In this document: positions 40,238 through 41,800 of the stretch, in pieces
Layout of the letters: each line of letters begins with the position of its first letter
How positions within the stretch are numbered: the first letter of the stretch is position 1
Source of the DNA: an uncultured Actinomycetota bacterium
Lineage (GTDB): Bacteria; Actinomycetota; Actinomycetes; Propionibacteriales; Nocardioidaceae
Length of the DNA stretch: 64,000 nt
Assembly: GCA_963845215.1 (NCBI GenBank)
Contig: CAWJRK010000016.1
Location: forward strand, 74,609 to 138,608
Reading direction: 5' to 3'
Notes under the pieces: generated by a model
Told to the model about the DNA's origin: nothing
Databases searched by the model: none
Seen by the model: the letters and a program-made list of their open reading frames with translations, nothing else
Made by a program: the position numbers and the translations under genes

Positions 40238-41251
40238 ATGTCCAGTTACGGTCCGGGCGAGCGTGAGCTCTTCGAGACGGGCTCGGCCGTGCTCTTCGAC
40301 GAGATCGTCGCCGCCGGTGGACTGAGCGTCGACGATGCGCGGATCGCCGCCGAGGCGCCGCTGCGACCGGCCTTCGACCTCCTGGTCGAGCTCGGCCTGG
40401 TGCAGCTCGACAAGGCTACCGACACGTGGATGCCCGAGGACCCCAACAGCATCCAGTCCCGGGTGGTCGCCCCGCTGAGCCACGAGGGCGCCAAGCTGCT
40501 CGAGGAGTCATCGCACTGGGCCAGGGCCTTCGGCACGCTCGCCCAGTCGTGGCGGCGATCGCCCGCCTCGCAGTCGCGGGGACCGTTCACCTACCTCCAC
40601 GGGGAGGCGATCGGGCCGTTCCTCAATGGCCTCGTCTCGGAGGTCGAGGAGGAGCTGCTCACCGCCCAGCCGCAGACCGGCCGTGACGCGCAGAGCCTGG
40701 CCGCCGCGGCCCTGCGCGACACGGCCGCCCTCGAGCGGGGCATTACGATGCGCACCCTCTACCAGCACAGCGCCCGCCGCAGCTCGGTCACTCACAAGTA
40801 CGTCGCCGCCGTCACCGCGCGGGGTGCGGAGGTGCGTACCCTCGACGAGTTCTTCAATCGAATGATCGTGATCGACCGGCGGGTCGTGGTGATCCCGGGC
40901 GAGGACCTCAGCGTCGCCATCGCGGTGCGAGAGCCGGCCGTGGTCGCCTACCTGGTCGACGTCTTCGAGCGGGCCTGGGAGCGCGGTCGTCCGTTCACCA
41001 ACAAGGACAGCTCGATGATGCGCGAGATCGCGGTCGAGCAGCGCTCGATGACGATCCGGATGCTGATCGAGGGTCACGCCGACCCGGTCAGCGCGAAGCG
41101 GCTCGGCGTCAGCCCGCGCACGTACGCCGGCTACATCGCGGACCTGAAGGCGGAGTACGAAGCGGACACCCGCTTCCAGCTGGGCTACCTGATGGGCCAG
41201 CAAGGCGTCTCCGGCCACGAGCCCGGACGCGATGACGACGCGACGGACTAG
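40238..41251 (+). CDS. TrmB-like/LuxR-HTH transcriptional regulator
   Basis: N-terminal LVELGLV wHTH-like segment, central MRTLYQH..RMIVIDR domain, C-terminal SAKRLGVSPRT..TRFQLG; GAGGAGG SD. Confidence 0.85.
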   Translation: MSSYGPGERELFETGSAVLFDEIVAAGGLSVDDARIAAEAPLRPAFDLLVELGLVQLDKATDTWMPEDPNSIQSRVVAPLSHEGAKLLEESSHWARAFGTLAQSWRRSPASQSRGPFTYLHGEAIGPFLNGLVSEVEEELLTAQPQTGRDAQSLAAAALRDTAALERGITMRTLYQHSARRSSVTHKYVAAVTARGAEVRTLDEFFNRMIVIDRRVVVIPGEDLSVAIAVREPAVVAYLVDVFERAWERGRPFTNKDSSMMREIAVEQRSMTIRMLIEGHADPVSAKRLGVSPRTYAGYIADLKAEYEADTRFQLGYLMGQQGVSGHEPGRDDDATD

Positions 41252-41277: not shown

Positions 41278-41316
41278 GAGGGCGGTGACTCGAGTTGGTT
41301 TCGAGTCACCGCCCTC
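41278..41316. terminator. Bidirectional terminator hairpin
   Basis: GAGGGCGGTGACTCGA-N7-TCGAGTCACCGCCCTC, 16-bp stem. Confidence 0.8.
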
Positions 41317-41321
41317 TTTCG

Positions 41322-41388
41322 TTGAGACCGGCCAGGGGGGTGGCACTGGGGCCGAACAAGTGGGGGGAAAGTTGGGCCCCGGTCTCAA
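41322..41388 (-). ncRNA. 6C-like structured RNA (two hairpins with C6 loops inside a closing stem)
   Basis: Minus strand: TTGAGACCG GGGCCCAAC-TTTCCCCCCACTT-GTTCGGCCC CAGT GCCA-CCCCCC-TGGC CGGTCTCAA. Confidence 0.65.
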
Positions 41389-41401
41389 GTCTCTGGGTGG
41401 C

Positions 41402-41545
41402 CTAGCCTCCGGACCCGGGTACGGCGAAGCACAGGCCGCCGCAACCCCAGCTGGTGTCCTTGGTCGCCTCGGCCGGTGCGGCGATGCCGACCAGGCCGAT
41501 GCTCATCGCCAGCGTGGCGATCGAGATGCACAGCTTGCGTCCCAT
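41402..41545 (-). CDS. 47-aa secreted peptide precursor with DTSWG motif
   Basis: MGRKLCISIATLAMSIGLVGIAAPAEA/TKDTSWGCGGLCFAVPGSGG; basic n-region, hydrophobic h-region, AEA site; GGAG SD. Confidence 0.75.
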   Translation of the reverse strand: MGRKLCISIATLAMSIGLVGIAAPAEATKDTSWGCGGLCFAVPGSGG

Positions 41546-41648
41546 ACGTCTCTGCTCCCACCTTCTGCGCCCCGGCCTGCAGTCGGCCCTGAGTGGAGTG
41601 TCAGGGCTGGCAGCGACCGGGCGTGAGCGAATGATTGGCTCATTTATC

Positions 41649-41672
41649 TGCAATGCAGTTTTCTGCAGTGCA
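41649..41672. promoter_or_regulatory. Inverted repeat upstream of the peptide gene
   Basis: TGCAATGCAG-TTTT-CTGCAGTGCA (9/10 arms) in an AT-rich patch. Confidence 0.6.
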
Positions 41673-41711: not shown

Positions 41712-41800
41712 CGGAGGCGGCGGGATTTGAACCCGCGAGAGGGATTAACCTCAACCCGCTTAGCAGGCGGGCGCCATAAACCGGACTAGGCGACGCCTCC
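41712..41800 (-). tRNA. tRNA-Ser(GCT)
   Basis: GGAGGCG acceptor stem, CCCGC-CTGCTAA-GCGGG, long variable arm, GGTTCAAATCC. Confidence 0.95.

Follow-up and report, generated by a model that had tools for sequence, protein, structure and literature searches.

A covarying three-way-junction RNA with two C-rich loops behind a predicted secreted-peptide gene of Nocardioides

The window, a 64,000-nucleotide stretch from the genome of an uncultured member of the Nocardioidaceae (contig CAWJRK010000016.1, positions 74,609 to 138,608), carries a small open reading frame (ORF) for a predicted secreted peptide that converges on the gene for a putative regulator, with a strong hairpin between the two genes. 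Between the peptide ORF and this hairpin, on the minus strand at 41322-41388, lies an RNA element whose sequence reads as a three-way junction: a 9-bp closing stem encloses two hairpins, each of which presents a CCCCCC loop. Its parts are as follows.

41322..41388, minus strand: the whole element, consisting of the closing stem (41380-41388 with 41322-41330) and two C-rich-loop hairpins; based on sequence, minimum free energy (MFE) fold, a score of 91.5 bits with covariance model R1 (described below) and covariation
41348..41379, minus strand: hairpin 1, loop UUUCCCCCCACUU, with its C6 run opposite the plus-strand G run 41362-41367; based on sequence and fold
41344-41331, minus strand: hairpin 2, GCCA-CCCCCC-UGGC, with its C6 run opposite the plus-strand G run 41335-41340; based on sequence and fold

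Examination of the DNA reveals that TTGAGACCG (41388-41380) and CGGTCTCAA (41330-41322) are perfect reverse complements, and in the minus-strand RNA they provide the 5' arm UUGAGACCG and the 3' arm CGGUCUCAA of the closing stem, with an AG spacer separating hairpin 1 from hairpin 2. The peptide stop codon (TAG, 41404-41402) is followed by 13 nt before the element begins, and the strong hairpin at 41278-41316 begins 5 nt past its end. A preliminary description of this DNA, made from the letters alone, had already reported the 9-bp stem, the two hairpins, the six cytosines per loop with their opposite G runs, and the placement 13 nt after the stop and just before the terminator; all of this is borne out base for base. 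In RNAfold the MFE structure and the centroid are both the three-helix fold, at -65.3 kcal/mol over 131 nt (z = -7.4), and 0 of 200 shuffles fold as well as the element region. Runs of at least six C occur 534 times on the two strands of the genome, and paired runs 10-40 nt apart are found at 5 places, the element among them. These plain counts were used in place of a crude scan for double-C-loop hairpins, which returns 2652 hairpins with loops of at least 5 C in this genome and misses the element because its stem is bulged.

When the region is compared by BLAST with 60 relatives, matches are recovered at loci of the same genus, and in five of these relatives the alignment is limited to the element (81-85% identity) and leaves the ORF unaligned, so that nucleotide conservation is highest on the element itself. 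When 13 copies are aligned with MAFFT without any structural guidance (alignment A1), RNAalifold regains the three helices, and 9 of the 19 pairs show compensatory changes. The covariance model R1, built from the 13 relatives, matches 64 of 151 Nocardioides genomes (43 of 100 among the high-quality ones), nearly always with a single match per genome; the copy in the window scores 91.5 bits (E 2.4e-17) and is the sole match in its genome. An order-wide sample gives R1 matches in 10 of 27 genomes of Nocardioides, in 0 of 17 genomes of other genera of the family and in 0 of 106 genomes of four other families of the order (0 of 123 together).

Fitting 64 sequences to R1 yields a larger alignment (A2), a procedure that favours the structure, although the result from the free alignment A1 agrees with it. 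Standard pairs make up 92.7% of the paired cells in A2, a share that falls to 21-41% if partners are shifted by 1-3 columns; changes on both sides are seen in 14 of the 19 pairs (128 cells), and 0 of 500 shuffles reach any of the observed covariation measures. All 7 pairs of the hairpin 1 helix show such both-side changes. The short stem of hairpin 2 is nearly invariant, which makes its covariation hard to judge, and the closing stem contains a core, GAGAC/GUCUC, that hardly varies although it is paired. Sequence conservation resides in the loops (consensus (C)CCCCCCAC for loop 1 and ACCCCCC for loop 2) and variation in the stems, which is the usual pattern of seed regions; both C runs are kept in most of the 64 species, and a few species have lost one of them. 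The R1 matches are 65-82 nt long and these lengths are not multiples of three; therefore the element is not coding, and a 46-aa ORF running across it was rejected as a coding sequence. G-U pairs outnumber A-C pairs when the structure is read on the peptide strand (41:24 and 30:10), which is a modest vote for that strand. Conservation and covariation over 64 species mark the element as a real structured RNA under selection, with a negligible contribution of chance, and the C runs and stems noticed in the single sequence are indeed features of the homologous loci.

Two hairpin loops with about six C each are the hallmark of another actinobacterial RNA, 6C (RF01066; B11/ncRv13660c in mycobacteria, scr3558 in Streptomyces coelicolor). 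In mycobacteria, 6C binds G-rich sites on mRNAs directly through these loops and needs no chaperone (PMC6486639). The architecture of the two RNAs is, however, different. The Rfam consensus of 6C consists of tandem hairpins, one of 12 bp with a 9-nt loop and one of 13 bp with an 11-nt loop, followed by CCCUU; it has no closing stem, and its second hairpin is the terminator. The element shares the pair of hairpins with six-C loops, but in place of long tandem hairpins it has a covarying closing stem of 8-9 bp, hairpins of 8 and 3-4 bp within it, and a separate terminator. Furthermore, 6C is encoded as a stand-alone small RNA (sRNA), whereas at about 60 of the 64 loci the element follows an ORF, in the 3' untranslated region (UTR) of the peptide gene, with a second copy in one species, considered below, as the exception. 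The element is also confined to Nocardioides among the genomes searched. RF01066 gives no match to the element at its gathering score of 47 bits, nor at E<=10 in searches of 601 nt and 121 nt, and over 20 orthologous loci its one match is an off-register hit of 29.5 bits that spans hairpin 2 and the terminator rather than the element. Conversely, R1 scores at most 16.6 bits on canonical-looking 6C loci of neighbouring families. Since the 6C model fails, the two models do not cross-recognize and the architecture differs, the element is a separate, uncatalogued RNA family and not a member of 6C, its hallmark loops notwithstanding; no family in Rfam 15 covers it. Thus, of the earlier proposal of a 6C-like RNA in the 3' UTR of the peptide gene, the structured two-C-loop RNA on the peptide strand behind a conserved ORF stands, and its designation as a 6C paralog is to be dropped.

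Canonical 6C is not found above the cut-off in this genome, where the one match scores 33.8 bits, nor does any Nocardioides genome searched have one above the Rfam cut-off; with the present genome 76% complete and the control C. glutamicum likewise yielding sub-threshold matches alone, absence of 6C is not claimable. The 33.8-bit match (C50:191532-191605; L035:1501-1574), the nearest approach to the separate 6C locus that the preliminary description had suggested looking for, was rejected as a bona fide 6C, because conservation across the genus is limited to the sigma-factor coding part of this region, and a plain terminator stands at this position in other species. Its two hairpins, with loops of C5 and C4, immediately follow a sigma-70-family gene and face a convergent gene for an AlkZ-like glycosylase.

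The element is embedded in a neighbourhood of which the following features were recognized in the window.

41402..41545, minus strand: pre-peptide ORF of 47 aa, with a predicted signal peptide ending in AEA and then TKDTSWGCGGLCFAVPGSGG; the tail of a longer ORF, with orthologous ORFs upstream of the element in other loci
41278..41316, either strand: 17-bp GC-rich hairpin, putative terminator common to the convergent peptide and regulator genes, with a T-tail TTTCGTTGAG on the plus strand and a weak tail GGCUCAUUGU on the minus strand
40238..41251, plus strand: convergent regulator gene, 337 aa, with a faint LuxR/FixJ-type C-terminal helix-turn-helix and a weak DUF7436 match; based on profile matches and synteny
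41712..41800, minus strand: tRNA-Ser (GCU) gene, just upstream of the peptide promoter; based on an Rfam scan and synteny
41637..41672, minus strand: motif TGCA..TGCAGAAAACTGCATTGCAGATAAATGAGCC in the promoter region, some 95 nt before the start codon; recurs in orthologs
41555..41566, minus strand: G-rich Shine-Dalgarno (SD) region AGAAGGUGGGAG of the peptide gene; based on sequence and duplex prediction

At about 60 of the 64 loci the element is preceded, at a distance of 3-71 nt, by the end of an ORF of 38-65 aa; a few spacers measure about 100 nt. The encoded product begins with a basic N-terminus, followed by a hydrophobic core and a cleavage site of the AxA type, beyond which lies a D(T/S)(S/T)WG motif; the CGGxC loop is present in some versions and absent in others. 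The ORF, the signal-peptide layout and D(T/S)SWG are kept over more than 100 loci, including those anchored on the regulator, while the nucleotides diverge. Searches against Pfam and NCBIfam return no family for the peptide. Judged by these sequence features, the gene appears to be a genuine, conserved gene for a small secreted peptide, with the element in its 3' UTR; there appears to be no room for a promoter of the element's own between ORF and element, and no conservation of one is seen. The pre-peptides of four loci (L183, L149, L163 and L199) contain two or three tandem D(S/T)SWG(Y/F/W) units with basic residues between them. This arrangement, comparable to that of multi-copy precursors of signalling peptides, suggests that the precursor is cut to release a short active peptide of the DSSWG type.

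In all 62 orthologous loci compared, a hairpin of -27 to -49 kcal/mol directly follows the element. Weak terminator U-tracts are common in actinobacteria; in the window the hairpin fits the intrinsic-terminator pattern on the plus strand (the regulator side) only, the U-tract on the peptide side being weak. The regulator is adjacent and convergent in 40 of the 40 loci with 1.5-kb flanks, and all 27 Nocardioides sampled have an ortholog. Anchoring on the regulator gives 80 loci, of which 53 have the element (50 of those at E <= 2e-4); most of the element-free ones keep the peptide gene, with only a terminator behind it, or a degenerate C-rich stretch, or not even a spacer. As regulator and peptide are genus-wide and the element is present in only part of these loci, the RNA is an accessory 3' UTR domain, in roughly 40% of species, of a peptide-regulator module common to the genus. 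In two loci (L056 and L075) the regulator is broken into three or four frame-shifted pieces, which are either pseudogenes or assembly errors in metagenome-assembled genomes.

Further upstream, a Ser-type tRNA with a long variable arm is found at the corresponding position in 18 of the 20 orthologous loci examined. The promoter-region motif recurs in orthologous loci (e.g. L004, L005 and L131) with the layout TGCA-N7-TGCAATGCA-N6-7-TGAG, irrespective of the presence of the element. A scan of the peptide promoter region with the sigma-70 consensus gives no match, and the TGCA motif is a candidate operator of the convergent regulator. A hairpin in the 5' UTR, GGGCC-AUUCCGUG-GGCCC, lies about 20-45 nt upstream of the start and just before the SD (e.g. 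in L131, L150, L141 and L193; the variant in the window is GGCC-GACUGCA-GGCC). It was rejected as a partner of the element, being found in loci with and without it.

A single species (genome G130) has a second copy of the element (G130:C2:312592-312857; L235:2950-3215, minus strand), which lies downstream of a DEAD-helicase/DUF3516 gene. This copy retains the TGCA-type promoter motif and has no peptide ORF, no SD and no adjacent regulator. Its leader adds a third hairpin with a C7 loop and finds no relative among the 150 other genomes of the genus searched. Given the lack of a peptide ORF, this one case argues that the RNA is able to stand alone and to work without the ORF in cis.

Sequences from RNA libraries also include the element. 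Six soil metatranscriptome runs had a few words in common with the region; the contigs of four of them were compared with it, and a metatranscriptome run X16 yielded no contig to align. The longest match, a 225-nt contig that is about 95% identical (10 differences, 1 gap), covers 41301-41522, that is, the upstream arm of the terminator, the element and part of the ORF, and a contig of 167 nt from another study spans 41337-41505. Another two contigs, from relatives, fit the element only and then continue into unlike sequence, which in one of them, as read by eye, encodes ...CGGACIVQP, the C-terminal tail of a relative's peptide. The contigs that bridge ORF and element fit co-transcription of the two in soil Nocardioides, as the preliminary description had proposed, but contigs do not show strand or transcript ends.

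The conserved loops are predicted to pair with sequences at nearby translation starts. The SD of the peptide gene in the window, AGAAGGUGGGAG, gives a predicted duplex of -13.3 kcal/mol with loop 1 and of -8.7 kcal/mol with loop 2, and predicted duplexes of a loop with its own SD reach -13 to -16 kcal/mol in many loci. When tested against the consensus loops, the translation initiation region (TIR) of the peptide gene is more complementary in element-bearing than in element-free loci (-10.1 versus -7.1 kcal/mol; p = 2e-4, uncorrected), and the rest of the 5' UTR has no such difference. Close 5' UTRs differ exactly at the G run, which reads AAGGTGGG where the element is present and AAGGTGTG or AAGGTGAT where it is not. 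At the regulator, the TIR contains GGGG in 36 of 50 element-bearing loci versus 7 of 23 element-free ones. Presence of the element changes state only six times on the regulator tree, leaving two supported independent pairs and a test without power; because of this, the contrasts at both the peptide and the regulator TIR are treated as leads. A genome-wide scan for other G-rich TIRs, made without gene calls, yielded 117 mostly spurious ORF starts and amounts to noise. The ribosome-binding region of the regulator is unusually G-rich (e.g. GAAGGGGGAG and GAGGGGUGGUGAG) mainly where the element is present, and element-free loci tend to have a plain GGAGG (L125-L204; 40195-40240 in the window), a difference that loses significance when shared ancestry is taken into account.

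In light of the above, we propose that the element is a base-pairing riboregulator with C-rich loops that is carried on the peptide mRNA and acts in trans, with the peptide's own SD possibly among its targets, a proposal to which we give an even chance. It would form the 3' domain of the mRNA for the small secreted D(T/S)SWG peptide, with the closing stem and the two hairpins folding into a three-way junction that would display the C runs (CCCCCCAC and ACCCCCC) single-stranded, and the strong hairpin beyond it would end the transcript. The C loops could then serve as seed regions that base-pair with G-rich SD-type sequences, and by analogy with other C-loop RNAs the element probably does pair with G-rich ribosome-binding sites. 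The regulatory molecule might be the whole peptide transcript or a 3' fragment processed from it, and candidate targets are the G-rich SD of the peptide gene itself and that of the neighbouring regulator.

A parallel is offered by RNAIII, the agr effector of Staphylococcus aureus, which encodes delta-haemolysin and has 3' C-rich hairpin loops that pair with the SD regions of target mRNAs, and which is tied to peptide signalling. The resemblance would lie in a peptide-coding transcript with a C-rich-loop 3' domain; there is no homology in sequence or structure, RNAIII has 514 nt and 14 hairpins, its peptide is a toxin and not a signal, and trans action would be a presumption in the present case. 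Extending this parallel, the peptide transcript could be the RNAIII-like bifunctional output of an undescribed actinobacterial peptide-signalling circuit, supplying both the precursor of a secreted D(T/S)SWG signal and a C-loop riboregulator that would control translation of the cognate LuxR-like regulator and of other genes with a G-rich SD. We regard this extended version as unlikely; if true, such a circuit would hard-wire signal production to post-transcriptional output. Among stand-alone sRNAs, RsaE/RoxS of Firmicutes use unpaired C-rich motifs as seeds against G-rich ribosome-binding sites (PMC2790875), but they belong to a different phylum, are encoded by genes of their own and have a different fold.

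Several observations weigh against the proposed riboregulator. Over 62 loci, duplexes of the loops with their own TIR are no stronger than those with the TIRs of other species (-9.3 versus -9.3 kcal/mol), so that no coevolution of loop and TIR is seen, and own-TIR duplexes are only about 0.5 standard deviations better than those with shuffled TIRs (-7.4 +/- 3.5 kcal/mol). Complementarity is weak evidence in any case, because C-rich loops pair in silico with almost any SD. The association of a G-rich SD with the element is confounded by shared ancestry and does not hold up, and no target has been demonstrated. The peptide-regulator module lacks the element in about 60% of Nocardioides species, so the element is dispensable for it, and the stand-alone copy is one case only. 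Finally, the RNA-library contigs, in which DNA carry-over is possible, are no proof of transcription, strand or transcript ends.

Part of this evidence might be accommodated by a purely cis-acting anti-SD element in the 3' UTR, in which pairing of the C loops with the G-rich SD of their own mRNA would damp translation or trigger decay, with no targets in trans. A precedent is the 3' UTR of the icaR mRNA of S. aureus, which contains a UCCCC anti-SD motif complementary to the SD of the same mRNA (PMC3868564). The strong predicted duplexes of the loops with the SD in the window and in many other loci would fit such a role, as would the greater loop complementarity of peptide TIRs in element-bearing loci, not shared by the remaining 5' UTR, and the divergence of related 5' UTRs precisely at the G run. 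However, loop 1 pairs with its own TIR more weakly than -6 kcal/mol in 18 of the 62 loci, in some at just -2 to -4 kcal/mol and with loop 2 mostly no stronger, and yet these loci keep both C loops. The equality of own and cross-species duplexes and the confounding of the TIR association by ancestry tell against cis action too, and the G130 copy is without any ORF or SD to act upon. The icaR motif is, moreover, a single-stranded stretch in a long 3' UTR, unlike the conserved, covarying junction of the present family, about a quarter of whose members lack complementarity to their own SD. We hold action in cis alone to be unlikely. A different role, as a binding site for a protein or as a stabilizing 3' structure, is again unlikely, and slightly more so: an RNA-binding protein (e.g. 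a KH/S1-type poly(C) binder or an RNase) would recognize the junction and the C loops, or a block to 3'-to-5' decay would set the half-life of the mRNA. The near-invariance of the paired GAGAC/GUCUC core hints at sequence-specific recognition, the element always stands directly before the terminator, and a pairing target for the loops is still undemonstrated; but a decay block needs no conserved loop sequence, the terminator hairpin of -27 to -49 kcal/mol already provides one, and no C-loop-binding protein is encoded in the conserved neighbourhood.

The remaining alternatives concern descent and the existence of any function. A highly diverged homologue of 6C, be it a paralog or a relocated ortholog, would be compatible with the proposed trans-acting riboregulator, as it bears on origin and not on mechanism. 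The two loops with runs of six C are what 6C is known by, and with no 6C above the cut-off in any Nocardioides genome searched the element could stand in for it. We nevertheless consider common descent very unlikely: RF01066 finds no match and neither model recognizes the other's members; a closing stem, short stems and a separate terminator take the place of two long tandem hairpins; the element sits behind an ORF, occurs in just about 40% of the genus and is lacking from every other genus searched; and short C-rich loops readily arise independently. That the element has no function of its own, being a chance GC-rich fold or an accessory of the terminator, is improbable in the extreme. High-GC genomes do fold well in silico, as the 2652 C-loop hairpins of this one attest, but one match per genome at E values of the order of 1e-17, compensatory changes in 14 of 19 pairs over 64 species and better conservation than the adjacent ORF are not expected of such a fold, and covariation effectively refutes it.

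While C-rich-loop riboregulators, regulatory 3' UTRs and dual-function RNAs are all known, what is new is the family itself, the architecture of its junction and its constant position behind a predicted secreted-peptide ORF; no literature on a C-rich sRNA of Nocardioides was found, nor any report of this arrangement on a peptide-coding transcript. Among riboregulators of high-GC Gram-positive bacteria, C-rich-loop RNAs are to our knowledge the best understood, and 6C is the only one to have been dissected. The element represents a second, independently shaped C-loop family, one that appears to be carried on a peptide-coding transcript. Its strict coupling to a genus-wide module of a putative secreted peptide and a regulator offers a concrete entry to peptide signalling and 3' UTR regulation, both little explored in Actinomycetota. 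The genus has many cultured type strains, e.g. N. ungokensis, N. szechwanensis, N. koreensis and N. kribbensis, and R1 is a covariance model ready for use in annotation.

Elsewhere in the genome of the window, C36:23110-23138 and C41:1197-1225, on two different contigs, lie in a near-identical stretch of about 80 nt in which two C6 runs flank GAAGGCAAGCTATTCGG; this is either a repeat or an assembly duplicate.
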